This document shows, in pieces, positions 1,822 through 41,300 of a stretch of 64,000 bases of DNA. The notes under the pieces were generated by a model, which saw only the letters and a list, made by a program, of their open reading frames with translations, was not told the origin of the DNA and did not search any database. How positions within the stretch are numbered: the stretch's first letter is position 1; every line of letters begins with the position of its first letter. The DNA is from Clostridia bacterium. GTDB lineage: Bacteria > Bacillota > Clostridia > Oscillospirales > CAG-272. The position numbers and the translations under genes are program-made. The stretch covers positions 1,380 through 65,379 of the forward strand of contig JAFTOG010000050.1 in NCBI GenBank assembly GCA_017451485.1, read 5' to 3'.

Positions 1822-3885
1822 ATGAAAAGATTAAAAAACAAATTTTTACAAATGGACTTAAATACAACCACATATCAGGAAATGTACAATGCAACTATCA
1901 CAATACTTGACCCGGAAAGAGAATGGGCACCGCCTATTTGCACAGCTGACCCAACATATTACAGGGGGCAAATAGGCTTTACCGTAACCGGGACCCATAA
2001 GCTTGCCCAGGATAAGCCTACTGTGACTGTGGTTATTCCCAACGATTATATTCTTTCAGACAAAAGGAGGAGTGATATAGTGAAGAGATTAAAGCATTAT
2101 TTACGCAATATGGAGGAGGGCACATCCACCTACAAGGATATGTATGAGGGGAAGGCTCTTTGTATAACACCGTCAACTGCATGGGATGGACACGCACCTG
2201 AGCCTGAGGAGACAAACGACCCTACCTACTGGCACGATGACGGGATATCCTCCTTTACAATAGAGGAAACAAATAAGCTGTCAAAGGATATTCCCACAGT
2301 CACATGGCAGATTCCCTGTGAAAAGATAGGAATTTCTAAAATTACAGACACCTGTGCTGACTTTTGTCTGCGTAGATTCAAAAAATATATAGATGAGCTG
2401 AACAGAGAGCTTTATAACAGGAGCCGTCCCGATAATGAAAACGGCAGATATTATCTTTGCGAGCCCAGGGGTGAGGTCCTTACAAGAAATACTGCATACT
2501 TTGCTCTTTGCCCGCAGAAGGACTACGAAAACGGAGGCGGCTCCACGGTATATCTGCTGCGTGACGGTGTGGAAAGGCAGCCCAAGATGTGCCTGTGCAT
2601 ACGGTTACAGGTTCAGCTCCCCAAAAAGAGACTTAAAAAGGCCATGACAATGCTGTGTAAGGATCTGCCCGATGCAGTTGACAGATTTATTACCGATTTT
2701 GACTTTGAGGAGCTTGAGAAGGCATTGGAGCTGTCATATAAGCAAGAAATGATACGGGAGTATCTGAGAAGCAGTGATTATTGTGCTTTTATCGCTAACG
2801 GTAGCATTCTCCCACGAAAAAAAGGAACCGATTTACCTCTTGAGGGTGCTGTTCCGTTTTTATCGGTTAAAGAGGATGAAATTGAAATATGCGGAATCAA
2901 GGGCATGGGAATCAAACGGGGAGTTACCGTAATAACAGGTGGCGGATACTCGGGAAAATCCACGCTTCTTGATGCAATTTCTTCCGGAATATACAATCAT
3001 GTTCTCGGAGACGGGAGAGAGCTGTGTATAACAGATGAGACTGCAGTTACAATTTCTGCTGAGGACGGGAGAAGTGTAAAACGGGTTAATATATCCCCAT
3101 TCATAAAATGGCTACCGTCCGGTGATACGGCAGATTTCTCCACAGAGCATGCCTCAGGCTCAACATCTCAGGCTGCTAACATTATGGAGGCAATAGATTG
3201 TGGCTCCAAGCTTTTGCTGATTGATGAGGACAGAAGTGCAACAAACTTTATGATCAGAGATAAAATGATGAAGGAGCTGATACAAAAGGAGCCAATAACT
3301 CCTTTTACCGATAGAGTGCACGAGCTATATAAGTCCGGGGGAGTGTCTACAATTCTTGTAATTGGAGGAAGTGGAGAATATCTATCCGTAGCCGATAAGA
3401 TATACATGATGGAGGACTATGTTATATATGATGTAACCGACAGGGCAAAATCAATCTGTGTAAATAACAGAGTGGAAAATAAGGATGCTCCCTTTGCGGA
3501 CTGGAATCAGACAAGATTTCTGCTTTCCACCAAATTTACATCTTATCCCACAGGAAGCGGAAGTGAGAAATTAGAGGTGTCGGATATGGGATTCATTATC
3601 ATAGGAGATGAAAGGATAGATGTCCGTGGTCTTCATAATATTGTTAGCAATGAACAGCTTGATGCATTGGGATTTATGCTCCGTTACCTCGAGATATCAA
3701 ACATTGATAGCATAATTAACATAAAGGAAAGGATTAACGAGCTTTACGACAGGATAAAAAGGGAAGGGCTTGATTGTATATACTCATCCTTCTTTACAAG
3801 TGGAAGGCGTTTTCTCGACTTGCCGAGAAAAACAGAGCTTATTGCACTTATAAACAGAATGAGGCATATCTCTTTTGCAAGATAA
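1822..3885 (+). CDS. ABC-ATPase domain protein (COG3044 / 'predicted ATPase of the ABC class') with a duplicated N-terminal module
   Basis: Walker A ITGGGYSGKSTLLDAI, ABC-like HASGSTSQAANIMEA, and Walker B LLLIDEDRSATNFM. Start choice is uncertain (see finding). Confidence 0.8.
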   Translation: MKRLKNKFLQMDLNTTTYQEMYNATITILDPEREWAPPICTADPTYYRGQIGFTVTGTHKLAQDKPTVTVVIPNDYILSDKRRSDIVKRLKHYLRNMEEGTSTYKDMYEGKALCITPSTAWDGHAPEPEETNDPTYWHDDGISSFTIEETNKLSKDIPTVTWQIPCEKIGISKITDTCADFCLRRFKKYIDELNRELYNRSRPDNENGRYYLCEPRGEVLTRNTAYFALCPQKDYENGGGSTVYLLRDGVERQPKMCLCIRLQVQLPKKRLKKAMTMLCKDLPDAVDRFITDFDFEELEKALELSYKQEMIREYLRSSDYCAFIANGSILPRKKGTDLPLEGAVPFLSVKEDEIEICGIKGMGIKRGVTVITGGGYSGKSTLLDAISSGIYNHVLGDGRELCITDETAVTISAEDGRSVKRVNISPFIKWLPSGDTADFSTEHASGSTSQAANIMEAIDCGSKLLLIDEDRSATNFMIRDKMMKELIQKEPITPFTDRVHELYKSGGVSTILVIGGSGEYLSVADKIYMMEDYVIYDVTDRAKSICVNNRVENKDAPFADWNQTRFLLSTKFTSYPTGSGSEKLEVSDMGFIIIGDERIDVRGLHNIVSNEQLDALGFMLRYLEISNIDSIINIKERINELYDRIKREGLDCIYSSFFTSGRRFLDLPRKTELIALINRMRHISFAR

Positions 3886-3978: not shown

Positions 3979-4341
3979 ATGAAATTTGATTCCAATTACA
4001 GAGGCTCACAGCGTGCAGATTATGAGCAGTTTGCTAAATTTTTAAGTGGACGCAGAGCAAATGTTGACAACAACAGCTGCTCTGATAATAATGATTGCGA
4101 CCATAATCACGGCTGCAATCATAATTATGGTTGCGACCATAACAGCGACTGTTCTCATAATCACGGATGTGAGCAGACAATATGCGGCACCCGTCCCATT
4201 GCCATGGTGTACGGTATCAGCCAGGAATGGAAAAACCTTTACGATATTGAATTAGGGCTTTCCTACGGTACTGTTTTTGAGGAGCTGAATCTTCCTCTTG
4301 AAAAGACAGGTTGCTCAGGTGGAAGGGGGTGCAGAGGATGA
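3979..4341 (+). CDS. cotJA: spore coat-associated protein CotJA
   Basis: C-terminal motif PIAMVYGISQEWKNLYDIELGLSYGTVFEELNLP is typical of CotJA. It sits directly upstream of cotJB/cotJC. The central part is a His/Cys/Asn/Asp-rich low-complexity stretch. Confidence 0.75.
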   Translation: MKFDSNYRGSQRADYEQFAKFLSGRRANVDNNSCSDNNDCDHNHGCNHNYGCDHNSDCSHNHGCEQTICGTRPIAMVYGISQEWKNLYDIELGLSYGTVFEELNLPLEKTGCSGGRGCRG

Positions 4342-4601
4342 TGAATGTAAATCGTGAAAAGCTTATGAAACAGATACAGGCATATTCCTTTGCTGCCCAT
4401 GACGCTATGCTTTATCTTGATTGTCACCCCACATCAAAATGTGCTCTTGACTATTACAACAAGCACAAGGCATTGGCTATGAAGGCTACAAGGGAATACG
4501 AGGCACGCTTCGGTCCCTTGACATTGCCGTTTGATGCATGCTCCTGGGAGTGGACAAATGGACCCTGGCCCTGGCAAAATGAATGCAATTATAAGGAGTA
4601 G
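4338..4601 (+). CDS. cotJB: spore coat protein CotJB
   Basis: MMNVNREKLMKQIQAYSFAAHDAMLYLDCHP...ALDYYNKH...YEARFGPLT matches the CotJB signature. The ATGA overlap with the cotJA stop suggests translational coupling. Confidence 0.8.
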   Translation: MMNVNREKLMKQIQAYSFAAHDAMLYLDCHPTSKCALDYYNKHKALAMKATREYEARFGPLTLPFDACSWEWTNGPWPWQNECNYKE

Positions 4602-4604
4602 GCT

Positions 4605-4715
4605 ATGTGGCAGTACGAAAAGAAATTACAGTATCCCGTTAATATAAAAAATCCCAACCCCAAGTATGCACAGATTATAGTTAGTCAGCTTGGTGGAGCA
4701 GACTGTAAATTATGA
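4605..4715 (+). pseudogene. cotJC: cotJC 5' fragment (codons 1-31, then 5 phage-derived codons and a stop), split by prophage insertion
   Basis: MWQYEKKLQYPVNIKNPNPKYAQIIVSQLGG is the canonical CotJC N-terminus. The reading frame leaves host sequence after 4697 and stops at TGA 4713-4715. Confidence 0.9.
4686..4697. repeat. attL core (CAGCTTGGTGGA)
   Basis: An identical 12-mer occurs at 48940-48951, in the same cotJC codon phase at both sites. Confidence 0.85.
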
Positions 4716-4718
4716 TGA

Positions 4719-6194
4719 TTATAAATCGTGAAAATAAATAGCCAAGTTGCCTTTAGCCTTTTCATATATTATCTTTTCTATTATTGTATGGAGAGCTTCG
4801 TTTTTGGCGACGGCGGTGACATCTTCTCTTTGGATGAAGTCCACTATGCCTGAGACCTTTTCTGCAAAGGCATCTATGTCAGTTTCCTTTACGATCTCTT
4901 TATCTCTCCTTGCTATGAGGTCATCGATTCTCTTAGTGATTTCTTCCTTGTTTTGCTTATACTGCTCAATGGTGTCTATCTCTGCAAGGTATGCTTCCTT
5001 TGCTCTTGCAAGTCTGCGTTCCTCTACTGTTATGAGCTTATCAAAGTCAATTAAGGAATGGTCGGTATTTTTAGGCTTTGTCGGTACTAAGGTAAACTGC
5101 TTTGCTCCGACTGCCTGTTTGAGACCTTCAATAAAAGCGGCTTCAATTCTTGGAATGGTAATTCCGTGTGAAGTGTGACAAGAGCCTCTTGAATAATTGC
5201 AACATTGTAAGCAACGAGTCCCTGCTTTACCGCTTTTTCCGTTAACTGCAAGAGTGCCGCCGCAAGAACTACATCTTACAAGTCCTTTTAGCAAGTGGTC
5301 TATAGGTTGAGACTTTCTTGCATACTTGGGATAAACCTTCCTTTGTTCTTCAAGCATTTTTTGTACTTTGTCCCACAACTCCATTGAGATAAGCGGCTCG
5401 TGATGTCCGTCAACGGTCATTATCTTCTCATTCTCAAAGTCATATTTGCTCACGGCTCTCGCTCCGTCAAGACTCCAACGTATCTTTCCGATGTAGCAAG
5501 GATTGTGTAGTACATAGTCTATCCATCTGTTTTCAGGCTTCTTTCCATACCTTGTGCGGATGCCTCTCTCTCCCATCATCATAGCTATCTCTCTTTGCTT
5601 AACACCATTGGCATAAAGAGTGAATATCTCTCTGACGATATTCGCCTTGCCGCTTTCCTCATCGGGATAGTACATCTTGTCCCTCATAATATACCCAAAT
5701 GGGGGAGGGCAGGTAGGCTCTCCTCTTGTTGCTTTCTCTGTCATACCTCTCGTTACCTCCACTCCGAGGTTGACAAGATAGTATTCATCTGTCCATTCAA
5801 TAATTCTTTCTATAAGAGAGCCGAAATGTCCTTCAGGTATAGGCTCTGATACCGATACAACGGTCACACCTCTTTTGCGGAGGAGATTTTTATATACCAT
5901 ACTCTCCTCTTGGTTACGGGCAAATCTTGAGAACTTCCAAACATATATCACGTCAAAGGGATGCGTTTTCTCCTTTGCAAGAGCTATCATACGGTTGAAG
6001 TCATCCCTTTTTTTGACACTCTTTCCCGATATACCGTCATCATAGAATACATACTCATCGGGAATGATGTATCCGTCTTTTGCGGCATATTCTCGTATCT
6101 TCTTTAACTGCGAGTCGGGACTGTATTCATCCTGCCTCTCATCAGATACTCGGATATATGCGGCTCCGATCCTTAATAAATCTTCTTTATCCAA
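4719..6194 (-). CDS. large serine recombinase (phage integrase)
   Basis: N-terminal resolvase domain (AAYIRVSDERQ with catalytic Ser, DGISG, FSRFARN), a recombinase domain, a Cys-rich zinc ribbon (CSSCGG...CLQCCNYSRGSC) and a C-terminal coiled coil. The gene ends about 20 bp from attL. Confidence 0.92.
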   Translation of the reverse strand: MDKEDLLRIGAAYIRVSDERQDEYSPDSQLKKIREYAAKDGYIIPDEYVFYDDGISGKSVKKRDDFNRMIALAKEKTHPFDVIYVWKFSRFARNQEESMVYKNLLRKRGVTVVSVSEPIPEGHFGSLIERIIEWTDEYYLVNLGVEVTRGMTEKATRGEPTCPPPFGYIMRDKMYYPDEESGKANIVREIFTLYANGVKQREIAMMMGERGIRTRYGKKPENRWIDYVLHNPCYIGKIRWSLDGARAVSKYDFENEKIMTVDGHHEPLISMELWDKVQKMLEEQRKVYPKYARKSQPIDHLLKGLVRCSSCGGTLAVNGKSGKAGTRCLQCCNYSRGSCHTSHGITIPRIEAAFIEGLKQAVGAKQFTLVPTKPKNTDHSLIDFDKLITVEERRLARAKEAYLAEIDTIEQYKQNKEEITKRIDDLIARRDKEIVKETDIDAFAEKVSGIVDFIQREDVTAVAKNEALHTIIEKIIYEKAKGNLAIYFHDL

Positions 6195-6207: not shown

Positions 6208-6687
6208 TTACTTTATTTCTATTAAGTGTTCCCACATAAGATTTCCAAAATTATAACAGATGTCTGCGATTTTTGATATATTTGTTTCGTATTCCTTTAC
6301 AATGTAGTCAGGAAGAGTCATTAAGAAATACTTACCTTTTCTTTCAACGACCTTATTATACAATTCATTTGAGAATTGTTTTTTTAGTTCGTTAATTGAA
6401 TCATTGTGTTTGTGAATAACATCAAAAAGAGCATTTATTTGAAAACTTCTTGCAAAATCGGAACAAACCGAAGAAAGGTTGTCTAAGCGTTTTCTATACT
6501 GCAAAAAACACTCTTTGGTGATTTTTTGACAATGCCTCGAAAATTCGTTTTCAATACTATGCAGGCATTCTCTTAATTCAGAGAGCCACATTTCGTGACT
6601 TTCTCGATTTTCCTTTCCTTTTATCTCTCTAATAATGAAGAACAAAGATGTACCTACCCACAATACTAACAGGAGTGCTTCTGCCAT
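6208..6687 (-). CDS. hypothetical protein with an N-terminal TM anchor (AT-rich moron candidate)
   Basis: One N-terminal hydrophobic helix (LLLVLWVGTSLFFII) followed by a helical soluble part. Lies 13 nt upstream of the integrase gene on the same strand. Confidence 0.5.
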   Translation of the reverse strand: MAEALLLVLWVGTSLFFIIREIKGKENRESHEMWLSELRECLHSIENEFSRHCQKITKECFLQYRKRLDNLSSVCSDFARSFQINALFDVIHKHNDSINELKKQFSNELYNKVVERKGKYFLMTLPDYIVKEYETNISKIADICYNFGNLMWEHLIEIK

Positions 6688-6702: not shown

Positions 6703-7149
6703 TTAATATCTAAAATATCCAAAGTGTCCATTGAGAATATCAATGGTGAGTATAATCAGAACGAATGCAACGAAGCCAAAGAAGAAAAATGCTAACCTGT
6801 GCTTTTCTTTACGTTCTCTTTCTTTATCTTCCTTCAAGGATTCGATTAACTTATCTTTCTCTATGAGACGCTCATCCTTCTCCCTTAATAGTTCCGAATA
6901 GGATGTGAGGGTAGCTTCAATCGGAGCAGAGATAGGCTGTGCTTCAGGTTGCTTGAGTCCTGCAATCTCGTCAAGGGACGCACCCAAGGCTATAGCAATT
7001 TGAGAAAAGGTGTCAAATGTGGGATTAGGTGTGCTTCCGTTAAATATTCTCGTGATGGTTGCGAGTGGAATATTAGATAACCTTGCAATTTCTGCATTAG
7101 TCATATGTTTTTCTTCTTTTAGTGCTTTTAATTTCTCTAAATACTGCAT
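6703..7149 (-). CDS. XRE-family HTH protein with a C-terminal TM anchor
   Basis: HTH MTNAEIARLSNIPLATITRIFNG, a coiled segment, and a C-terminal helix FFFFGFVAFVLIILTIDIL. Confidence 0.7.
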   Translation of the reverse strand: MQYLEKLKALKEEKHMTNAEIARLSNIPLATITRIFNGSTPNPTFDTFSQIAIALGASLDEIAGLKQPEAQPISAPIEATLTSYSELLREKDERLIEKDKLIESLKEDKERERKEKHRLAFFFFGFVAFVLIILTIDILNGHFGYFRY

Positions 7150-7337
7150 TTAGTCCTCTTTCTATAATATGGATTTAATCATTTGTGAGTAAGATGCTCA
7201 AATTTGAAAATCAAAGATGAACACCGATAATTTAAGTTGATATTGTATTGCTTAAACTTGCGTATTGAAATGTTTTTTCAATTGAGTTATACTTTTTTCA
7301 GAAACAAAGTTTCGAATATTGGGAATGTCAAAAAAGT

Positions 7338-7366
7338 TTGACAATTTTCATATAATAAGTTACACT
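7338..7366 (+). promoter_or_regulatory. promoter candidate (TTGACA-17-TACACT) for the small ORF at 7417
   Basis: TTGACA at 7338-7343 and TACACT at 7361-7366. A perfect TATAAT also lies at 7351-7356 but is badly spaced. Confidence 0.45.
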
Positions 7367-7373
7367 AAAAATA

Positions 7374-7385
7374 GAACATATGTTC
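7374..7385. promoter_or_regulatory. LexA (DinR) Cheo box GAACATATGTTC
   Basis: aGAACATATGTTCg matches the Gram-positive SOS box consensus CGAACnnnnGTTCG at 13/14 positions. It lies at or just after the predicted transcription start. Confidence 0.7.
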
Positions 7386-7416
7386 GCACAAGTGAAAGCG
7401 AAAGGGGATTATAGTA

Positions 7417-7560
7417 ATGACAGAAAACGAAAAAGAATTGATTAAACTCATTCGTGAAAACGATAAACCTGAACAAGCATTGATGGCAGCCGCTGTCATT
7501 ATTCTTGGCTTCCTAAAGCAACACGAATCATCTGCAAAACAAGTTGCTGTTGTTCATTAG
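7417..7560 (+). CDS. 47-aa protein (MTENEKELIKLIRENDKPEQALMAAAVIILGFLKQHESSAKQVAVVH); candidate SOS-controlled antirepressor
   Basis: SD AAAGGGGA lies 8 nt before the ATG. The ORF is below the ORF-track cutoff. It converges on the repressor gene and overlaps its 3' end by 62 nt. Confidence 0.5.
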   Translation: MTENEKELIKLIRENDKPEQALMAAAVIILGFLKQHESSAKQVAVVH

Positions 7561-7843
7561 GTACACGTCTGAATAAGTCGAGTAACATTTTTTCTCCCTC
7601 GGAAAGCTTCGGCTCTTCGGGGGAATTTTTTTGTCCTGTGTCTTCTATGAGGTCAGATTTTTGAATACCAAAGTAGTTTGCCAACATTTCTACTTTGTCC
7701 ATTCTCGGATATTTCTTTCCATTTACCCAATCTGTTATGGTAAAGTAGCTAATACCCAAAGCATTACTTATGTCGTTTCTGCTCCTGCCATTTAACTCCA
7801 TATACTTTTTTAGATTTGAAGCAAATATGTTTTTATTATCCAT
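7499..7843 (-). CDS. CI-like XRE-family repressor (HTH only, no S24 peptidase domain)
   Basis: HTH RSRNDISNALGISYFTITDWVNGKKYP. The protein is 114 aa and the gene is divergent from the cro-like gene. Confidence 0.8.
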   Translation of the reverse strand: MDNKNIFASNLKKYMELNGRSRNDISNALGISYFTITDWVNGKKYPRMDKVEMLANYFGIQKSDLIEDTGQKNSPEEPKLSEGEKMLLDLFRRVPNEQQQLVLQMIRVALGSQE

Positions 7844-7863: not shown

Positions 7864-7892
7864 ATTATAAGGCTAAAAGCACAAAAAATCAA
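7864..7892 (-). promoter_or_regulatory. repressor promoter (minus strand TTGATT-17-TATAAT)
   Basis: The reverse complement of 7887-7892 is TTGATT and that of 7864-7869 is TATAAT. The promoter is overlapped by the AAAAGCACAAAA repeats. Confidence 0.55.
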
Positions 7893-7907
7893 TACAAAAG
7901 CACAAAA
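7875..7907. promoter_or_regulatory. two direct operator half-sites AAAAGCACAAAA, 21 bp apart
   Basis: Copies at 7875-7886 and 7896-7907. Each contains the AAGCACA half of the palindrome TGTGCTTTAAGCACA. Confidence 0.6.
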
Positions 7908-7923
7908 TTTTTCGATTTATGTA

Positions 7924-7952
7924 TTGACAAATCGTGTCGAATATGATAATAT
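7924..7952 (+). promoter_or_regulatory. early lytic (cro) promoter TTGACA-17-TAATAT
   Basis: TTGACA at 7924-7929 and the -10 region TGATAATAT at 7944-7952. Confidence 0.6.
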
Positions 7953-7957
7953 GTAAC

Positions 7958-7972
7958 TGTGCTTTAAGCACA
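7958..7972. promoter_or_regulatory. operator palindrome TGTGCTTTAAGCACA (at +1 of the cro promoter)
   Basis: Perfect 7-1-7 palindrome. The 18-mer ACTGTGCTTTAAGCACAA is repeated at 8193-8210. Confidence 0.7.
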
Positions 7973-7998
7973 ATTCGACAAAAAAGGAGGCAAGCAAA

Positions 7999-8217
7999 AT
8001 GAAAATCACATTGAGAGCTGCACGAGTTAACAGGGGATTAACTCAGGAAGAAGTGGCAAAAGAACTCAAGAAAAGCAAGAACACTATTGTAAATTATGAA
8101 AATGGCAAAAGTGTTCCTGACATTGAAACAGGCAAGGCTCTTGCGACTTTATACGGTTGCACTGTAGATGACCTTATTTTTTTACCTTGCGACTGTGCTT
8201 TAAGCACAAAAGAATGA
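7999..8217 (+). CDS. Cro-like XRE-family HTH regulator
   Basis: RGLTQEEVAKELKKSKNTIVNYENGKSVP, 72 aa, first gene of the rightward early operon. Confidence 0.8.
   Translation: MKITLRAARVNRGLTQEEVAKELKKSKNTIVNYENGKSVPDIETGKALATLYGCTVDDLIFLPCDCALSTKE
8194..8208. promoter_or_regulatory. second copy of the operator palindrome, inside the last codons of the cro-like gene
   Basis: TGTGCTTTAAGCACA is identical to 7958-7972. Confidence 0.6.
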
Positions 8218-29364: not shown

Positions 29365-32300
29365 ATGGCAAGTGTAGCCGAAATTAAAAAGCGACTTAAA
29401 GAGCAAGGCATTACAGGAGAAGTAGGACAGGCAAGCAGACACTATAACAGGAATAGCAATACTTCAAGCGAAAAGAAGAGTAGCGGTTATGTAGGTAGCA
29501 GTCAATACCAAAAGATAAAAGAAAAAGTAAAAAAAGGCGGTATTTCTTTTGATGAGCTTGGTGTAGACCAAGACTACATCAATTCCTACATTAACGATAC
29601 AAATACCTTCTTAAGTACAGCACAGGATGATATTAATGGTGTTGGGTGGGGGAATGCATCATCCACATATGAATCAAAGAATAACACATATATGGACCTC
29701 CACAGAAAGTCGAGTAATATCCGTACTTGGCTGAATGCAAACAAGAGTAACCTTGATGAAGAAACATACAATAACCTTATAGATTCTTTGGAAAAAGCTC
29801 AAAGCAGCTTGTCTTCTGTAAATAAAGCTTTTGAAGAGACTAAAGCCTTTTACTCTCAGTTTGAAACCGAGAATGACTACAATAATTATGTTCAATATGG
29901 GGAATTGAGCCGATATGATGTAAACGCAGGTCAACAGGAACTTGATATTCTTAATGGTCTCGCAAATGAAGTAGATGATTACAACAAAAAAGCCATTTCT
30001 TACGGTTATCTCGCTATCACTCCCGAAGAAAAAAAGAGAATGGAGGAGATAGATAAGGTTCTCAAAGAAAAGGGATATGAAGACGGTGCAGATGGTCTAA
30101 AGGGAGTTATATCAGAGAAATCGGCTTATCATAACCGAGCTAAGCAGATACAGGATGGTATAGCACTCTCCTCTGCAATTAACAATCCCGATTTCGAACA
30201 TTATTCTCAGGCAGGAGCAAATGTAAGTAATCCGTCTTGGGAAGACCACAAAGCTCCTGTAAACATCTTCGGATGGACTCCAATGGGAGAGGGCGAGGAA
30301 ATTGGGAATATGGTAACATTCGCTGAGGCTAATAAAGACACTGTTAATACAGATGCAGTATTAAGTTGGTCGTTGGCAAAAGGTATTGACCCGGAATCTA
30401 CATCTTATCAGTTATCGTTAATTAATAGGTATATGAAAGATGACGAAAAGGCTATATATAACTATTATATCGGTAAGGGTGACAAGGAAAGTGCAGATGC
30501 ATATATGTCATATATGATAGATGTCCTTGTGCAGAGAGAAGCAGGAGAATATGCGAATAAATTTGATGATACATATATGGAATGGGTAGTCTCAGGCACC
30601 GCAGGAGTTCATAATTTTGCATCGGGTATGTCAAACTTCTTTAATGGACTTACTCGTCAAGAAATCGACCCTAAATCGTCCCTTGCGTATTCACACGAAC
30701 TAATGAATAGCAATAACGAAGGAATATGGAAGATAACAAATGACCTTACATTTACTACTACCAATATGTTACCTTCTATACTGTTAAGCTTTGTTCCTGT
30801 AGCCGGTCCTGTACTTGGTACAACATCTATGGGAATATCAGCGGCAGGTAATGGCTATGCAGAAATGAAAAGACTTGGATATAGCGATGACCAAGCAAAA
30901 GCATACGGAACTCTCGTGGGATTATCAGAAGCAGGTCTTCAGACCCTTCTCGGTGGTATCAGTAAGCTTGGAGGCAAGATATCGGGCAAGGCTGTGGGCA
31001 ACTTAGTAAGCAAATTTGACAATGCTATTGCAAGAACTGCCATTAAGATTGGTGGCAATATGGTTGCAGAGGGAGCTGAAGAGGGTATTCAAACAGTGCT
31101 TGAGCCTGCATTTAAGGCTCTTGTTACAGGCGAGGACTACGAAGCTCCTGAGTGGGAAGAAGTCTTTTATTCATCACTCCTCGGTATGTTGTCAGGAGGT
31201 GTGTTTGAAGGAGGTCCTACTGTTGTAGATACTGCTGTTCAATCTCATCAGACAAGCAAGCAATACGGAAATTTCGCATCAGACATCGTAACAGAATTAA
31301 TTGAGCTTGACCCTAATAATTCACTCGCACAGAAAATGAAGGCAAGGCTCGACAGTGGTAAGAAAGTATCGGGATATCAATTAAACCGTCTTATAGATGC
31401 GAATGAGAGTGCTATGTACAAGCAGGATGTCTCTAAGATTAAATCTGCTACAGAGTCAAGACTTGCACAGCTTGGAGAACAGGGTGATGTAAGCAGACTT
31501 GCAGAAGCCATTGCGAAACATATTTCGGGCGAGGAACTTACACGATCCGAAATAAATATTATCAAAAACAGTAAATTCGGTCAGAGAGTTATCAACGAGC
31601 TTACCCCTTCTAATATTAAGTCAGGAGAATACTCAAGTGCTTGGGCAGAAGTAATCGGTACGGATAGGATAAATTCCGAGGAATACAGCAGGCTAATTGC
31701 AGACTTGGATGATGTACAAAATGAAGATTTTGACACAAAGACGGTTGATAATGCCACTGTGAAGACACAGAATGTTAAATCAGCCACAGAAATAATTTCC
31801 GAGACCGAGAATACACCTGTAGAAGAAAGTGCTGAAAATGGCGGTTTACAGGCTTCTAAAACTGCTATAGAAAATGTATCAGAGGAAGAAAAAAGCACAG
31901 TAACACTTGCAGAGGCTTCCCGAAAGTACGGAGCACAGGCACAGGCTATGATACATACTTATATCGAGGGACAGGATGCATACGAATACGACTCGGCTTA
32001 CAAGGTTGCATTTGATATGGGTAAAAGCGGAGTTTCCCTCTCCTATGCTTTAGAGAGTGAGGCTACTTCTTACCTATCGGAGAATCAAAGAAAACTCGCC
32101 TATGAAGCAGGAAAAGCGGCAGCGGATACATTAGCACAAAAGCGTGAAGCGGCGAACAAGAAAGCAGTTAATGGTAAGACAGGACGTAGAAAAGGTACTG
32201 TTAAGGGAGAGGGCGTAACTATTTCCGACCTTAAAAAGAGCTTCAATGATACTCAGAACAGGGCATATAAGATACTTTCCACTATTGCTGAGGTAACAGG

Positions 32301-35300
32301 TATTGATATTGTGCTGTATAAATCTGAGGTGAATGCAGACGGTAAGTTTGAAGGTGCTCAGGGTAGATTCAAATGGTCTGACGATAAAATCTACATTGAC
32401 ATAAATGCAGGTCTAAAGTCAGAAAACAGCGTGAATAATCTTGCAAAATACGCTATGCTTCGCAGTTTTTCCCACGAATTTACACATTTTATTGAAAAAT
32501 GGAATCCAATTTATTATAATGAGTTTAGAAAAGTAGTGTTTGACACACTTACAGATCGTGGCGAAAACGTACACAAGCTGATTATTGAAAAAATGGAGAA
32601 GATGGGTCTCGACTCCGAAGCCGAAGTAGAGGAAAAAAGAAGAAAGTACTATGACAGGGCAAGCCGTGAGGTTGTTGCTGAGGCTATGACCGATATTCTT
32701 CCTGATTCTCACTTCGTGGAAACTCTTGCAACAAAGCATAAGAATATCTTTGAAAAGTTACTTGATATGTTGAAGGAATTTCTTGCTGATATCAAGGCAT
32801 ATTTCAACACTATCACACATAACCCTTCAAGAGAGGCAAATACACTCAAGGAGCAGGTCGGAGAGACTGTGCATTATGTGGAAAACATTGTGAAGCTATT
32901 TGACAATGTTGCAGTAGAGGCTGTGGAAAACTATCAGATGACTGTTGCCATTGATGAAGTTGCAGAAAAACCTGCAAAGATTATCAACACAGTGACAAAA
33001 TCTGCTGAGAAAAGTGCAGATTCCAATAAATCATTGTATGAGAAATACAACGAAATAAAGGAAAGCTATCCCGATAATATCATTCTTTATAGGGTAGGAG
33101 ATTTCTTTGAGGTCCTTGGAGAAGATGCGAAAACTGTAGCAGATATACTTGACGTAACTTTGACAGGAAGAAACGATCCTAAACACGGACGTATTGATAT
33201 GTGCGGATTTCCTTATCATATCATTGAAAAGTATGTTGATAAGCTCCGCAAGAGCCACGATGTGGTGCTTGTAGATGTTGATGCAAAGGGAGAAGTGAAG
33301 GTTTATCCTATGGCTTCTATAAAAAATACTAACGGAGGTATTACAAATGTCCAAGAACGAGGCGAACAAAAAGCCGACAACACACGAGGAAGTAATTCAG
33401 CAGTTGAAGGAACACAAGAAACTGCTGGAGACAGATCCCGAGTACAGGAAACAGTACGAGGAAAGGAAGAAAAGTTTAGAGAAGTTCAACCTCTTCAACG
33501 ACAGCATAGAGGACTAAATGATAATCAATGGCTTTTAGACTCAAATAATTATATTGTTCCTGCACAAGACTCTGATTTGCACAAGGCACAGAAAACTCTT
33601 ACCGAAGATTACGGCATTGAATGTCATATCGTTAATAAATCTGCGTGGAAGAGAAATGCTAAGGCAACAACTTATTATGGAAAAGTCTACATTAGTGAAG
33701 ATATAGACGAACACAATCTTCGTGCTGTTCCTTTTCACGAAGCAACACACGCTATAAAACAGCGTGGCTTTAAGCCGTATTTGGATTTCATTGAGCGTAC
33801 TCCTGAAATGATAAATATGTCATCCCAAGAAGCACGAGATTTGATGGATGTTGTTTTGGAACACCTTGGATATAATAGTCTTGATATGGATGAACAGCAG
33901 AGAATTCGTTTTTATGATGAATTAAATGCATCTGTTTATGGTTTGACAGTTAGCGGAATTATTTTTGATAATGCTGAAATAGAATGGATTACAGATGCTT
34001 TTAACGACTTCACTGCTTATGCAAACGAGTTTACGGACATACACAATCAATTCAAAGCAAACAATAAACAGGAGGTAAAACCTAATGTCGAAAATGTTGA
34101 TAACAGAGACACAGTACAACAGCCTAACACCAATAGGCAGGGAGATACACAAGTATTGGAAGGACTTCAAACCCAAGATGTACAAGGAGATGTACAAAGA
34201 GGGGACACTGTGGGAGACACTGTCGAGCGAGGACAAGAGGTTGGACGAGATGATGCTGTCTCTGTTAACGGAGCAGGGACTCGCAGAGGACCAAGCGAGG
34301 GAGATAGTCAGAGCGGAGATATACGACGAAATGATGAGCTAAGTCCCGAAGCTGCTGAAAAACTCCACGAGGAAGTAACGGTACAGATTTCACAGCAGTC
34401 AACAGAAAAGCCCAAGGGCAGAAACTTTGTAATCGGTGATACTCTTGACCTTCCGAATGGAGAAAAGGCAAGATATAAGGCTAATATCGAAGCCATAAAG
34501 CTCGTAAAAACGCTTGAATCCGAGGGCAGATATGCAACAGAGCAGGAGCAGGCTATTCTCTCAAAATACGTAGGTTGGGGCGGTCTTGCTAATGCCTTTG
34601 ACGAAAGAAAGGCAGATTGGAGCAAGGAATTTAAGGAGCTTAAAGAACTTCTTACCAAGGAAGAGTACGAACTTGCAAGAGGCTCTACGCTTAATGCTCA
34701 CTATACAGAGATTTCCGTTATCAAGGCTATGTATGAGGGTCTTAATAAGCTCGGCTTTAACGGTGGGCGTATGTTAGAGCCTTCTTCGGGTGTTGGTAAC
34801 TTTGTCGGGGCTATGCCTTCTGATATGAGTGCAAAGGTAAAGAGTTGGACTATGGTAGAGCTTGACGGTATCACAGGACTGATCGCAAAATACCTCTATC
34901 CCAATGCCGATGTAAGAATACAAGGTTTTGAAAAAGCAAATATCCCCAATAACTTTATGGATGTAATTATCAGTAATGTTCCTTTTGGTAACTATCCCAT
35001 TACCGACAAGGCATATCCTAAGAAGGTAACGAGTGCTATTCATAACTATTTCTTTGCAAAGTCTCTTGATAAAGTCCGCCCGGGTGGAATCGTGATGTTT
35101 ATCACATCCTCATACACTATGAATAGTAAGGACGAGACCGTAAGAAGATACATTATGCAGAGAGCAGACCTTCTCGGAGCTATCAGACTTCCCGACACAG
35201 CCTTTAAGGGTAATGCGGGAACTGAGGTTGTTACAGATATTCTCATCCTTAAAAAGAGACCTGCAAATACAGCCTATACAGGTGAGGAATTCCTTGAAGC

Positions 35301-38300
35301 CCCTTACAAATATATAAACGGCTACAACGGAGCATATATCAACAGTTATTTCAATACTCATCCCGAAATGGTACTTGGTACTGCTTCTATGGATGGCAGT
35401 ATGTACCGTGGAGCTTCGCTGACATATAAAGCTCTTGAGGGTAAGGGAAGCCTTGCAGACCAAATCCGGGAAGCCTTTAGCCACATTAAAGGTAAAATGG
35501 ATTATCCTGCACGGTTGAGTCCCGAAAAGACCAATTTTGCAGTAGAGAGAGCAGGTAAGAATACCAAACAGGACGGCTACGTAGCAAAGAACGGAAAAAT
35601 ATATCAGAATAAAGACGGAGAACTTGTAGAGCAGACTGTTACTCCCAAGGTTGCAGAACGAATCAAGGGAATGCTTGAAATTCGTGATGCGGCCAAAGCA
35701 CTTACGAATGCTCAGCAACAGGGACTCAAGGATACCGAAATAAAGAAGGCAAGAGCAAATCTTAATAAGCTTTATGATGCTTTCGTAAAGAAAAACGGTT
35801 TCCTCAATGCTCCTGCAAATAGAAGTGCATTTAACGGAGATCCGGACAGATATTCTGTATTCGCTCTTGAAAATTGGGATAACGATAAGAAAACAGCAAC
35901 TAAGTCGGATATATTCTCCAAGAATACAATAGTTCCAAATCGTACTGTTAATTCTGCGAAGAACGTAGCAGAAGGACTTATTGTATCTGTAAACCAAACA
36001 GGCGGTGTAGATGTTTCTCTTATCGCAAGGCTGACAGGCAAGACCGAAGCCGATGTAACAAGAGAACTGCTTGACTCAAGACAGGTTTTCAAAAACAGAA
36101 ACGGTGTGCTTGAGACCGCAGAGACTTATCTTTCGGGTAATGTAAGAGCTAAGCTCCGTGATGCAGAGGCTCTTGTACCTATGGATAGCGACTATCAGAA
36201 GAACATTGAAGCACTTAAGGCAGTAATGCCCGAGGATGTTTCTTATCAAGATATTTTTGTCAACCCGGGTACACCTTGGATTCCTTCAAGTGTATATTCA
36301 GACTTTGCCGCATATATGCTTGGTGGAAGAAATACCGAATACAGACAGGATATAGATGTTACAAGAAATCCCGATACAGGTAATTTTACGGTAGAGCTTA
36401 AGAGTTCTTACTTAAAGTATAATGCCTCAAATACTCAGAAGTGGGGTACTCCTCGCCGTTCATTCATAGACTTGTTTGATGCTATGCTTAACTCTAAGAG
36501 CGTAGTAGTTAAGGACAAGCTTGACGATGGCTCGTTTGTAATAAACAAAGATGCAACTGCAGCCGCTAATGAGAAGATAGAGAATATCACAAAGGAATTT
36601 CAAGAGTGGCTATGGAAAGATGAAGCTCGCAGGACGGAGCTTGCTAAACTCTACAATGAGACATTTAACTCTATTGTAACTCCTAAGTATAACGGAGATA
36701 ATCTTACCGTGAACGGTGCAAATGCTATGAAGCCTTTGAGACCTCATCAGAGGAATGCTGTACAGCGAGTTATTTCTTCAGGCGGTAATACGCTTCTTGC
36801 ACATAAGGTTGGTGCAGGTAAGACCTACGAAATGGCGGCGGCAGCTATGAAGCTCAAGGAACTTGGACTTGTTAAAAAGCCTTTGTTCGCTGTTCCTAAG
36901 TCTCTTGTGGCTCAATGGGGTACAGAATTTATAGACTTCTTCCCAACTGCAAAATTGCTTGTAGCAGAAGCTACCGACTTTAGCACTGCTAACCGTAAGG
37001 TATTTATGAATCGTATTGCCAACGGAGATTATGATGCGGTTATCGTTTCATATGAGCAGTTTGAAAAGCTCCCTGTTTCTGATGATTTCACAAGAGAACT
37101 TTATCAGGAGCAGATAAATAGCGTTATTGCGGCTATCGAGGAAGCCAAAGCGGAGAAAGGAGCTAAGGCTCTTTCCGTTAAGGACCTTGAAAAGAAGCGT
37201 AAATCCTTGCAGGCGAAGATAGACAAACTGACCGACAAGGCAAAGGACGAGGGTAATATAGACTTTGAGGAATTGGGTGTAGACTCTCTCTTTATAGATG
37301 AGGCACATAACTTCAAGAATCTGTTCTATACTACCTCTATGACTAATGTATCAGGTCTTGGAAATAAGGACGGCTCAAAGAGAGCGTTTGACCTTTATAC
37401 AAAGGTACGCTATCTCCAAAAGCTGAATGGCGGTAAGGGAATTGTATTCGCTACGGCTACACCTGTTATGAACTCTATGTCAGAAATGTACATAATGCAG
37501 AAATATCTGCAACCCGACCTTCTTGAACAGCTTGGACTTAATACCTTCGATGCGTGGGCGAAGCAGTTCGGAGAGGTTGTCAACGGTGTAGAAATAAAAC
37601 CGAGTGGACAAGGCTACCGTGTAAAGCAAAGTTTCTCAAGATTCAAAAATATGAGTGAATTGCAACTATTATTCCGCAACTTTGCAGATGTTCTGACCGA
37701 CATCCCCGGACTAAAGATTCCGAAGATGAAGGGTGGAGCAGTAAATGTAGTAGTATGTGAGCCGGGACAGTTCCAACAGGATTATATGAAGGAGCTTGAA
37801 AAGAGAGCCGACAATATAAAGAATGTTGACCCTTCGGTTGATAATATGTTGAAAATCACTTCTGACGGTAGAAAAATATCCTATACTCAGCGTATGATAG
37901 ACCCCACTCTCCCTTATGAGGAAGGATGTAAAATATATCGTTGTGCTGGAAATGTAGTAAAAGCCTACAAAGAAAGCAAGGATATTAAGGGTACACAGCT
38001 TATATTCTGTGATATGGCAACACCAAAAGGCAAGAGTAAGACAGAGACTTCTACCGAAACAGACGATGCTTCAATGGATATGGAGAGTGCAAAGCTCTAT
38101 GATGATATTAAGGCTCGTCTTATACAGGAGGGCATACCTGCAAAAGAAATAGCTTTTATCCACGAAGCAGACACCGACCAAAAGAAAAAGAAGCTTTTTG
38201 CCGATGTAAACGAAGGTAAGGTAAGAGTATTGATAGGCTCTACAGGTAAAATGGGTGTAGGTATGAACGCACAAAAGCGTGTTGTTGCTATACATCACCT

Positions 38301-41300
38301 TGATGCACCTTGGAGACCGGGAGATGTTGAACAAAGAAACGGTAGAGCTTTCAGACAGGGTAATATCAATGAAGAAGTAGAGTGCTTTACATATGTTACC
38401 GAGGGAAGCTTTGACGCACGTCTTTGGGATATTCTTGAGAGAAAGCAGAACTTTATAAATCAAGTAATGAACGGCGAGAGCGTTGGACGTGAGACCGAGG
38501 ACACAGGAGAGGTTACACTTTCTGCCGCCGAGGTTAAGGCTCTTGCATCAGGCAGTCCTCTTATTATGGAGCAGGTACAGCTTGACACCGATATAAAGAA
38601 GCTTGAGTCTCTGTATAGGGCACACCTTTCCGCAGTCAGAGCCGCAAAGGAAAGGCTTGAAAAGGACAAGGGCAATACTGAGCTTCTTGAAAGACTTATC
38701 GAATTGGGTAAATCCGATATACAGTCTACAAAGGACACATACTCCGAGGGTAAATTCTCAATTACCGTTGGTAAGCAGAAGTTTACAGAAAAGAAGGATG
38801 CAGGCGTAGCTCTTATGGCAGAGGCAACAGCTAAAGCCAACACCACCGATTATACCTCTATAGGAAGTTTCGCAGGCTTTGATGTGCGTGTGATAAAAAC
38901 TGCCGAGGGTATTAAGGGTATTATCTCAGGTAAGCAAGGCTATCCTTTCAACACATATCCTAACAATACCACATTTATGATAAATCATATGATTTCGGTT
39001 GTAGAAGGTATAACCGAGAAAGTGAAGATGTGGGAAAGCTCCCTTGCGGAAACAAGGAAGGATATGGCTGAACAGGAGAAGCTTATAAATGCTCCTTTCT
39101 CAAAGCAGGCAGAGCTTGACGAGAAGCGTAAGCGTTACACCGAGGTTATGGAGATACTGAATCCTAAAGAGGAGCAGTCCCTTGACTCCGTGGCTGAGGA
39201 TACAGTACAGGAACAGAGCAGAGCATACTTGGAAGATGAACTTGACGATTTCGATATCAACAGTTATCCAAAAGTCAAGATGAGTGCCACCGAGTATAAT
39301 AAACTTGTATCCGAGGCAATGACTTGGAATGCCAACAAGACTAATAGAATATTGCATCATAGCCTTAATGGATACACTTATGTATATACCATTGATGAAT
39401 CTTATAACATAACAGTTTATAAGAAGTATAAATCAGTAAACATTCACGAAAGGAAGGCAAAAATATATGATATCCGTAGCGGAAAGCAAGTTAATAGAAA
39501 CGATGGTGAGAATCGGGATGGAAGACGAAATGATACATTTAGTCTGCTCGAATCTGACCGAGGAACAGATGATAGAAGCGGAGGACTTTTTGACTCATCG
39601 ACATCAGAAAAATGGTCAAGTGACGGAAGAAGAGGTACTGAAACTCCTATTGATAATGACGAAAGAGGAACACAATACCAACAGCGTTCAGAAGGACTAA
39701 CGGACTATGAAGTGCTTGAATTGGCTTCAAATGAAATCAAGGTAAGCGACCTTACACAGGCTGAAAATGATGCCTTGACTATCTTCCAAGACAGACTTGC
39801 AAGGTTGAAAACCCTTCAGGACGAGAGGACCGAGCAGGGCAGACTGTATAAAGAACAACAGTTTGGAGCAAAGGTCAACAGAGCTGAAGCTGAAAAGACA
39901 CTTAACCGTATGCACGTTCTTGACGATCAGATAAAGAAAGCTACAGCAGATGTACTGACTGTAGAGGAAAAAGAGGTATTAAAGCGAGTGCTTAAAAAGG
40001 CTCGTAAGGTTGTAGAGGTACAGGAGAGAAAGCACGGACAAGAAATTCTTAACCGTTGGAGAGACCGTAGAAATAATGCGGCCGCTATCAAGAAGTACCG
40101 TGACCGCCTCCGTGGAGACGTGGAAGAGCTTACAACTTGGATTACAAGTCCGAATAACAAGGATATTACAAAGCACGTTCCTGATGTACTTAAGAATTCA
40201 GTTATTCCTTTCCTCTCAAGCATTAACTTTATGAGTAAGCGTTCTCTTAAAGGTGGAGATGCAACTGTATCCGATAAAGCATTTATAAAGAACTTAGATG
40301 CATTAAAATCTGCACTTAAGATAAATATGGATGTTTACGGTATGTACTCAGGTTATAACGATTTGCCTCCTGACTTTATGGAGAATTTAGAGAACTTCAT
40401 AAAATCTGCACAGGCACTTGTTGATAAGAGTGCAGGCGAGTTTATCATAAATCAGATGACAAGCTCAGAACTGAAGGAATTATCACAGGTAGTGCGTACT
40501 CTTAAGAAGTACATAACTCAATTTAACCGATTCCACAACAATGCTATGTATCAGCATGTTTACGAGGCAGGAGACAATTCAATGGAATTCCTTAAAGAAC
40601 TCGGAAATGCAGGAGAGCATACAGGAGGATTATCCAACTTTGTATTTTGGCAACAGATAAGACCTGCCTACGCATTTGAGAGATTTGGTAAAGGTGGCGA
40701 GGCTATCTATGACGGACTCAGACAAGGACAGGCGAAGCTTGCCTTCAATACAAAGGAAATTCAGAGATTTACGGAAAAAGCATATACAAGCAAAGAGGTC
40801 AAAGCGTGGGAAAATGAAATTAAGGAATTTAACCTCGGCAGAGATATTGTGAGAATTCCTGTTTCATACCTTATGTCTTTCTATGAGTTGTCAAAAGACC
40901 CCCAAGCAAAAGAGCATATTGTTGGCGAGGGTATCAGAGTAGCAACATATACACACAAGGGCAAAAAGATTTCCGATGTTGGACACATTCTCACAGTTGG
41001 AGAGTTTAACCAGATAGTTAGCTCGCTTACAGACAGACAGAGAGAAGTTGCTGATAGCTTGCAGAAATTTATGGCAGAGCAGGGTGGTAAATGGGGTAAC
41101 TATGTTTCAGTTGCACGTTTCGGAGAGGAACTTTTTACAAATCCAAATTACTTCCCGATTAATTCTGACGGTAGACATTTGTCTTCTACAGTAGAAGAAC
41201 ATCCCTCTGCGGCTTCACTATATGCACTGCTTAATATGAGCTTCACAAAGTCGAGAAAAGAGGGTGCAAATAACCGTATTATCCTTTACAGCATATTTGA

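Follow-up and report, generated by a model that had tools for sequence, protein, structure and literature searches.

How does a prophage sense that its host's DNA is damaged when its repressor lacks a self-cleavage domain? Most prophages of the dominant gut Clostridia are uncultured, many of them have short repressors that do not cleave themselves, and their sensing of DNA damage is largely unexplained. The question is raised here by a serine-integrase prophage of ~44.2 kb in a 64-kb stretch of contig JAFTOG010000050.1 (hereafter the window, meaning the whole stretch analysed), whose host belongs to the gut Clostridia and is Oscillospiraceae-like. The induction-switch region of this prophage contains a CI-like repressor gene and, converging on it, a 47-codon open reading frame (ORF) that follows a LexA-type palindrome. 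An earlier note on this DNA, made from the letters alone, had proposed that host LexA keeps a small antirepressor and/or an antisense RNA silent until DNA damage. Comparison with 31 related loci indicates that the features of this switch are under selection, and we consider it moderately probable that the full mechanism operates, namely that a LexA-held small antirepressor would bind the oligomerisation tail of the repressor and induce the phage after DNA damage.

A short repressor without an autocleavage domain

7499..7843, minus strand: 114-aa CI-like repressor, comprising a helix-turn-helix (HTH) domain (residues 3-66), a disordered linker (67-81) and a C-terminal tail of two helices (82-109)
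7502..7624, minus strand: conserved C-terminal module SPEEPKLSEGEKMLLDLFRRVPNEQQQLVLQMIRVALGSQE of the repressor, the proposed oligomerisation domain and small-protein target

As the earlier note had stated, the repressor has no S24 autocleavage domain. Its Pfam matches are to XRE-type HTH families only, Peptidase_S24 (the domain with the Ser-Lys dyad) gave no Pfam match in it, and neither an S24 nor an ImmA-type protease was found in the immunity region, so that no alternative induction route is left. In the AlphaFold2 (AF2) model, with a mean predicted local distance difference test score (pLDDT) of 86, the tail helices are predicted at residues 82-93 and 96-109 and the C-terminus as a 33-residue helical hairpin. 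Foldseek matches over the whole length of the repressor include 9sf2_A, from the complex of the phi106 repressor with AimX (E = 0.01), and 1b0n_A, from the SinR-SinI complex, with which the repressor aligns over 109 columns.

The last ~41 residues of the repressor read SP-EEPKLTEGEKxLLDLFRRVPEDQQQLVLQMIRAALGSQE in relatives. Among the repressors, pairs have a median identity of 64% in the tail and 27% in the HTH, and the divergences of the two parts are uncorrelated (r = -0.02), which indicates that these repressors are mosaic, with HTH domains shuffled independently. Some loci have a repressor with two HTH domains.

A small ORF coupled to the repressor tail

7400..7407, plus strand: Shine-Dalgarno sequence GAAAGGGG, 9 nt before the ATG at 7417
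7417..7560, plus strand: 47-aa protein, the proposed antirepressor, predicted to form a helical hairpin, with conserved core residues 1-39

The small ORF lies downstream of the box behind its Shine-Dalgarno sequence, and converges on the repressor gene with an overlap of that gene's last 62 nt, both as claimed beforehand. Relatives keep the Shine-Dalgarno sequence as GAAAGGGG or GAAAGGAG. The protein has 369 homologue clusters at 90% identity, almost all of them 47-51 aa long, and a profile search of 1.84 billion representatives found at least 401 clusters at 50% identity. The best 150 of the 401 are all small ORFs; the longer ones are over-extended calls, in which the extra N-terminal residues translate the promoter and box region.

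Related loci were collected from both partners: the small protein led to 28 and the C-terminal tail of the repressor to 23. They come from metagenome-assembled genomes (MAGs) of gut Oscillospiraceae, Acutalibacteraceae, Christensenellaceae and other Eubacteriales, and from IMG/VR contigs of 40-46 kb. When 22 of them were anchored at the ATG, the nucleotide entropy of codons 1-27, which lie outside the repressor gene, was 0.61, 0.57 and 1.23 at codon positions 1, 2 and 3. Third positions are thus twice as variable as the first two, which points to purifying selection in the frame of the small ORF. Codons 28-39 overlap the last codons of the repressor, and here all three positions are equally constrained, as expected of dual-coding sequence; from codon 40 onward the entropy follows the periodicity of the repressor frame, so that the variable tail of the small protein appears to be free-riding. 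On this codon evidence the ORF is almost certainly a real protein gene. The idea that it is an antisense shadow of the repressor gene was ruled out by the codon-position entropy in the non-overlapping 81 nt.

The two genes also travel together. All loci with the downstream sequence retained show the small ORF running toward an XRE repressor gene and overlapping the 3' end of that gene by ~62-74 nt, and the conserved tail is present in all such loci found through the small ORF (the 22 distinct ones of the repressor alignment). In the other direction, the small ORF was present in all 22 usable loci found through the tail. The small ORF is therefore obligately coupled to the repressor tail. The divergence of small-protein residues 1-27 correlates with that of the non-overlapping tail (r = 0.43) and not with that of the HTH (r = -0.02); linkage alone could give the former value, so that the correlation shows a cassette and is not proof of contact.

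A probable LexA box behind the small-ORF promoter

7338..7366, plus strand: promoter P2, TTGACA-17-TACACT, from a promoter scan, with TTGACA at 7338-7343 and TACACT at 7361-7366
7373..7386, unstranded: LexA (Cheo/SOS) box AGAACATATGTTCG, with the core GAACATATGTTC at 7374-7385 and A and G flanks

Both elements exist as first described, the promoter with the box just after it and GAACATATGTTC as the only GAAC-N4-GTTC in the 64-kb window. AGAACATATGTTCG begins 7 nt past the -10 hexamer TACACT and would thus cover the inferred transcription start; 31 nt separate it from the ATG. The locus therefore has a GAAC-N4-GTT[CT] palindrome just downstream of a sigma-A-type promoter, the arrangement by which a Firmicute SOS box is recognised, and this motif is documented as the LexA operator of Bacillus and clostridia (PMC4234289).

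Within the window alone the box is not significant, with 0.63 occurrences of GAAC-N4-GTTC expected and at least one found in 47 of 100 shuffles, and for this reason the related loci were compared. Across 32 loci (the window and the 31 relatives) a strict box is present in 18, or in 20 when GTTT is allowed. These boxes always start 6-9 nt after a TAnnnT hexamer and lie 24-37 nt from the ATG; they contain 13 different central tetranucleotides and are usually flanked by A and G. In a non-redundant set of 23 loci totalling 120 kb, all ten strict matches fall 36-49 nt 5' of the small-ORF ATG and none elsewhere. The over-extended ORF calls in distant family members also repeatedly translate a LexA-like box. 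Arms that do not vary, a core that is free and a position fixed relative to the -10 hexamer look like binding-site selection, and we judge it highly probable that the box is a functional LexA site. A fortuitous combination of box, promoter and ORF would agree with the single GAAC-N4-GTTC that chance predicts in 64 kb, but is refuted by the conservation of position, arms and ORF over 32 loci with variable cores and synonymous change; its probability is negligible.

Two loci bear on which protein reads the motif. In L051 the small ORF has no box, and tandem strict boxes (AGAACATTTGTTCG and GGAACAAATGTTCT, 60 nt apart, at 2466-2539) stand before a 128-aa ORF beyond the neighbouring HTH-transmembrane (HTH-TM) factor; L041 has a second strict box in a similar place (2459-2470). 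SOS control has apparently been moved to, or duplicated at, another gene of the lysogeny module in these loci, and tandem boxes before another gene argue that the motif belongs to a global host regulator. The palindrome could alternatively be the operator of a phage-encoded regulator, in a regulatory region that also contains the conserved motifs TGTCGAAAT and AAGTTGGGTAT. Yet neither the GAAC/GTTC arms nor the A/G flanks change with the wide divergence of both phage HTH proteins, the motif recurs before other genes, and it is the experimentally defined LexA site of Firmicutes, so that an operator of this kind is very improbable.

A transcript predicted to end in the repressor linker codons

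7595..7632, plus strand: intrinsic terminator of the small-ORF transcript, with a 12-bp interrupted stem at 7595-7624 and a run of seven T at 7626-7632

The terminator is embedded in the codons of the repressor linker and is supported by its fold energy and z-score. An equivalent hairpin is present in 20 of 22 relatives. In the hairpin alignment 86% of the cells are paired and 7 of the 12 pairs change on both sides. Between 0 and 5 of 500 shuffles matched it in cells paired, in cells changed on both sides, in further pair types or in covariation score, while the count of pairs changed on both sides was matched by 27 of 500; slid controls all scored lower. From its position the transcript would be ~260 nt long, 134 nt of it antisense to the repressor mRNA.

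An Rfam match to the Streptococcus small RNA SpF22 at 7506-7631 on the plus strand scored 26 bits against a gathering cut-off of 55 and was not used as evidence; it is probably driven by the terminator hairpin.

A second way for the locus to act would have RNA or transcription itself as its effector: the LexA-controlled transcript would pair with the 3'-terminal 134 nt of the repressor mRNA, or converging polymerases would collide, less repressor would be made and the peptide would be secondary. The convergent overlap, conserved in every locus, and the conserved terminator, which sets a defined antisense segment inside the repressor gene, are both in its favour. Selection at the amino-acid level on codons 1-27, outside the overlap, is not explained by RNA action, however, and repressor that is already made, if stable, would persist after its synthesis was blocked. 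The AimX-AimC-AimL module of Bacillus phage phi106 (Kabel et al. 2025, bioRxiv 10.1101/2025.11.23.689978, PDB 9SF2) offers a direct precedent, in which stop-codon and recoded aimX alleles showed that the protein acts and that antisense RNA has little effect; in phi106 and phiW23, stop-codon alleles lose function and recoded alleles keep it. An RNA or transcriptional effector is accordingly quite improbable. The earlier proposal of a LexA-held antirepressor and/or antisense RNA agrees with all available computational tests (the box, the selection on the ORF, the coupling to the tail and the missing S24 domain), with the qualification that the protein, given the phi106 precedent and the codon evidence, is the likelier effector.

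A proposed contact between the small protein and the repressor tail

AF2 predicts the small protein as a helical hairpin with helices at residues 3-13 and 18-39. Helix 1 resembles the first helix of the repressor tail (MTxNExELIxLIR and LTEGEKxLLDLFR, respectively), and hhalign aligned small protein and tail with P = 0.0016-0.0022 over 13-24 columns, a score equalled in 1 of 200 column shuffles. This resemblance is suggestive only. A HMMER profile search returned no repressor tail among the best 150 of the 401 small-protein matches and thus gave no support for homology.

The small protein might be SOS-induced and have another target: the adjacent HTH-coiled-coil factor, LexA or RecA of the host (as for GIL01 gp7 and DinI) or the membrane. 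In favour of this, the divergent factor has a coiled coil too, and in the window copy helix 2 is hydrophobic (ALMAAAVIILGFL), with a BioY membrane helix as its only word match in the Protein Data Bank (PDB). Helix 2 nevertheless has D, E, H, S or Y in many relatives and is thus amphipathic, not membrane-spanning, and on this ground the idea of a membrane peptide was rejected. Moreover, some loci (L007 and L010, for example) lack the neighbouring factor or have another gene in its place, whereas none lacks the repressor tail, and it is the tail that the divergence of the small protein tracks. A different target is unlikely, and by analogy with the phi106 and SinI-SinR systems described below it is probable that the small protein is an antirepressor acting on the repressor tail.

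The preferred mechanism, with this contact at its centre, would run as follows. In the lysogen, host LexA would sit on AGAACATATGTTCG over the inferred P2 start and keep the ~260-nt transcript off. After DNA damage, RecA-stimulated cleavage of LexA would free P2 and the 47-aa protein would be made. Its helical hairpin would bind the two-helix tail of the repressor, replacing a second repressor tail, so that repressor oligomers would break, the operators (probably TGTGCTTTAAGCACA) would be vacated and the cro-like early operon would fire. Convergent transcription and the 134 nt over which the transcript could pair with the 3' part of the repressor mRNA may have a minor role, auxiliary at most.

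Relation to known induction switches

The earlier note had named Tum of coliphage 186 and the Gifsy antirepressors as the closest precedent, a place that we now give to AimX-AimC-AimL of phi106. AimC is a short XRE repressor (80-140 aa) without a cleavage domain, AimL is encoded by a divergent cro-like gene, and a 29-aa ORF just 3' of a LexA site overlaps aimC by 30 bp (10.1101/2025.11.23.689978). AimX binds the C-terminal domain of AimC, turns its dimers or tetramers into heterodimers, eliminates its binding to operators and is needed for the response to mitomycin C; its authors likened this mechanism to SinI-SinR (10.1101/2025.11.23.689978). The window locus shares with this module a short non-cleavable XRE repressor built of HTH, linker and helical C-terminal domain, a divergent cro-like gene, and a small ORF 3' of a LexA site that converges on and overlaps the 3' end of the repressor gene (47 aa here, within a range of 29-80 aa). 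The host differs, being a gut Clostridia and not Bacillus. There is no aimR or aimP at the locus; upstream lie a 148-aa HTH-coiled-coil-TM gene on the opposite strand, then a 159-aa ORF and the integrase, with no tetratricopeptide repeat (TPR) receptor. The small protein has no detectable sequence homology to its counterpart, and the repressor matches 9sf2_A by sequence in the HTH only (E = 0.32). With neither aimR and aimP nor sequence homology, the locus falls outside the arbitrium modules. In addition, its overlap is longer (62-74 nt, as against 30 bp) and dual-coding, its terminator is embedded in the repressor linker, and its tail is strongly conserved across heteroimmune phages, unlike the AimC tails and AimX, which are highly divergent.

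In Bacillus subtilis, SinR is an XRE repressor of ~111 aa with a two-helix C-terminal oligomerisation domain (PDB 1B0N; PMC3163267), and its antagonist SinI is a small helical protein that resembles this domain and forms a heterodimer with SinR (PMC3163267). The likeness here lies in the alignment of the repressor with SinR, and the marginal resemblance of the first helix of the small protein to that of the repressor tail may be a further parallel. SinI-SinR, by contrast, is a chromosomal biofilm switch under Spo0A whose genes neither converge nor overlap. The SinI domain PF08671 gave no Pfam match in the small protein or the repressor even at E <= 10, which places the locus outside the SinI family.

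Tum of phage 186 and GfoA and GfhA of Gifsy-1/3 are LexA-repressed antirepressors of non-cleavable repressors, and the Gifsy antirepressors act on heteroimmune repressors (PMC3121763). The combination of a non-cleavable repressor with a small protein gene under LexA is common to these systems and the window locus, but they use the Gram-negative LexA motif CTGT-N8-ACAG and have no overlap with the repressor gene, and the 47-aa protein shares neither sequence nor size with Tum, GfoA or GfhA. Tum has 146 aa.

Two further systems share single features. TF-smORF modules of Vibrio and other linear plasmid-like phages place a transcription factor (TF) beside a divergent small ORF (smORF) that inactivates the master repressor (Silpe et al. 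2023, PMC10432266). The window locus likewise has an HTH factor divergent from the small ORF and conserved motifs flanking the small-ORF promoters. TF-smORF modules, however, are SOS-independent, with the factor activating the small ORF, whereas the window locus has a LexA box. The Gram-positive phage GIL01 has no CI-like repressor and uses LexA itself, aided by gp7, as its lysogenic repressor (PMC4551915). Host LexA and GAAC-type boxes thus take part in lysogeny control in both cases, but the window locus has a CI/Cro switch and LexA would control the antirepressor only.

Antirepressor logic of this kind is already known from 186 Tum and Gifsy, and the same gene arrangement from phi106. The locus represents a new sequence family in a new host group, and most probably works like AimX or SinI. 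Its distinctive features are the conservation of the tail across heteroimmune phages, the dual-coding overlap and the terminator in linker codons.

A second promoter upstream of the box

6703..7149, minus strand: 148-aa transcription factor with an XRE HTH (Pfam HTH_3), a coiled coil and a C-terminal membrane helix, divergent from the small ORF
7232..7267, plus strand: two direct repeats, TTAAGTTGATATTG and TTAAACTTGCGTATTG, overlapping the -35 element of P1
7265..7293, plus strand: promoter P1, TTGAAA-17-TATACT, from a promoter scan, also directed at the small ORF

No other block of the intergenic alignment is as well conserved as P1. Where the P1 repeats, a candidate operator, lie in the window, the aligned regulatory regions of relatives have two or three copies of AAGTTGGGTATTGA. 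TGTCGAAAT and AAGTTGGGTAT are further conserved motifs of this region, the former abutting the -35 element of P2. Most loci encode an HTH-coiled-coil protein as the divergent neighbour, with homologues or analogous genes at the position of the 148-aa factor; the C-terminal membrane helix is a feature of the window copy. P1, the repeats and TGTCGAAAT suggest a second, SOS-independent input, maybe through this factor; the arrangement is reminiscent of TF-smORF modules and of the AimR input of phi106.

As a separate observation, the architecture of 7225-7345 (two or three direct repeats, the strong promoter P1 and TGTCGAAAT) is conserved in the upstream regions of L001-L028.

Evidence against LexA control and antirepressor action

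Several observations weigh against the preferred reading. A recognisable box is missing in 12-14 of the 32 loci (~40%). It is visibly degenerate in L003, L011, L015 and L022, in the first of these to AAAACATTTAGTTG although the repressor of L003 is 82% identical overall and 92% in the HTH; in L004 it is deleted; and L006 and L019 have neither P2 nor the box, leaving P1 as the sole promoter. Either LexA control is dispensable in some lineages or those prophages are decaying. P1, located 80 nt 5' of the box, is also better conserved than P2 and would not be occluded by LexA, although LexA bound at the box might roadblock transcription from P1. Given the ~40% of relatives without a box and the second conserved promoter upstream, LexA is probably not the sole input.

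The small protein gave no match in Pfam, PHROGs, PDB sequences, the INPHARED phage collection or Foldseek, and no detectable homology to AimX, SinI or Tum. Its resemblance to the repressor tail is marginal and confined to 13-24 residues. The host lexA gene is absent from the 64-kb window, and the sequencing runs that list the region comprise four gut-metagenome DNA runs and no RNA runs.

A possible portable cassette

A bolder reading, which we hold only tentatively and regard as doubtful, is that box, small ORF, terminator and tail form a portable dual-coding induction cassette of ~320 bp. Helix 2 of the antirepressor and the last helix of its target, encoded on opposite strands, would lock the pair together while immunity domains were swapped freely in front of it; one SOS-made protein could then cross-induce many heteroimmune prophages in the same gut bacterium, with a second, SOS-independent input through P1 and the membrane-anchored HTH factor. 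The conservation of the tail across unrelated DNA-binding domains in itself predicts heteroimmune cross-induction, as with GfoA and GfhA, and such cross-induction would matter for the ways in which gut communities are reshaped by antibiotics and genotoxins.

If the LexA-antirepressor reading is true, the AimX/SinI type of mechanism, in which a small protein blocks repressor oligomerisation, is not limited to the arbitrium phages of Bacillus. The locus would then offer a concrete and testable answer on DNA-damage sensing for a large group of phages (at least 401 clusters of the small protein at 50% identity). Its value lies in extending a known logic and in annotating a family, not in a new principle.

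The immunity region and its neighbours

7864..7892, minus strand: promoter-like site for the repressor gene, TTGATT-17-TATAAT, from a promoter scan
7924..7952, plus strand: promoter-like site for the cro-like gene and early lytic operon, TTGACA-17-TAATAT with extended TG, from a promoter scan
7956..7973, unstranded: candidate repressor operator ACTGTGCTTTAAGCACAA, an 18-nt perfect palindromic repeat with an identical second copy at 8192-8209
7999..8217, plus strand: 72-aa Cro-like HTH protein (Pfam HTH_3, E = 8e-17), divergent from the repressor

The palindromic repeats, together with the half-sites AAAAGCACAAAA at 7875-7886 and 7896-7907, are probably operators of the repressor and Cro. In a blastn search of 50,697 phage records the sole match was the HTH-coding part of the repressor gene (7641-7733), at 75-78% nucleotide identity over ~90 nt to repressor genes of Streptococcus Javan prophages and a satellite, a weak similarity at the level of the HTH.

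The repressor HTH has its best solved relative in 2KPJ from Eubacterium rectale, an XRE HTH protein of 94 aa that is not a LexA, although its deposited title reads 'SOS-response transcriptional repressor, LexA'. Two close homologues (P0131 and P0173) are likewise named 'repressor LexA' by JGI. Short phage-type repressors are thus mis-annotated as LexA.

Integration into cotJC and other prophage genes

3979-4341: cotJA, left of the serine integrase
4311-4601: cotJB, left of the serine integrase
4606-4698: first 31 codons of cotJC, left of the serine integrase
4719-6194, minus strand: serine integrase
6208-6687, minus strand: 159-aa ORF, flanked by the integrase and HTH-TM factor genes, whose product has an N-terminal membrane helix
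from 48941: remainder of cotJC (Mn-catalase family; observed over 48941-49455)

The earlier note had also linked the phage to sporulation through cotJC, and the prophage does interrupt this gene, with parts of it at both prophage ends. The segments 4687-4698 and 48941-48952 have the core CAGCTTGGTGGA in common, which is likely the att crossover. The split gene resembles those of known prophages that intervene in sporulation genes, SPbeta in spsM and skin in sigK.

Among the relatives, L007 and L013 likewise adjoin cotJ genes. L013, a cotJ-integrated prophage on a MAG contig of 116 kb, keeps the repressor and, except for its first ~8 codons, the small ORF, but has no promoter region left (locus positions 2977-3130); its cassette is probably decaying.

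The 159-aa ORF is without a family match, and its position is typical of a superinfection-exclusion or moron gene. Within the virion and tail gene block, a single ORF of 4707 aa (29365-43488, plus strand) has MutS domain I and a SNF2/ResIII helicase core; its product may be a giant packaged or ejected protein for anti-defence or DNA handling.

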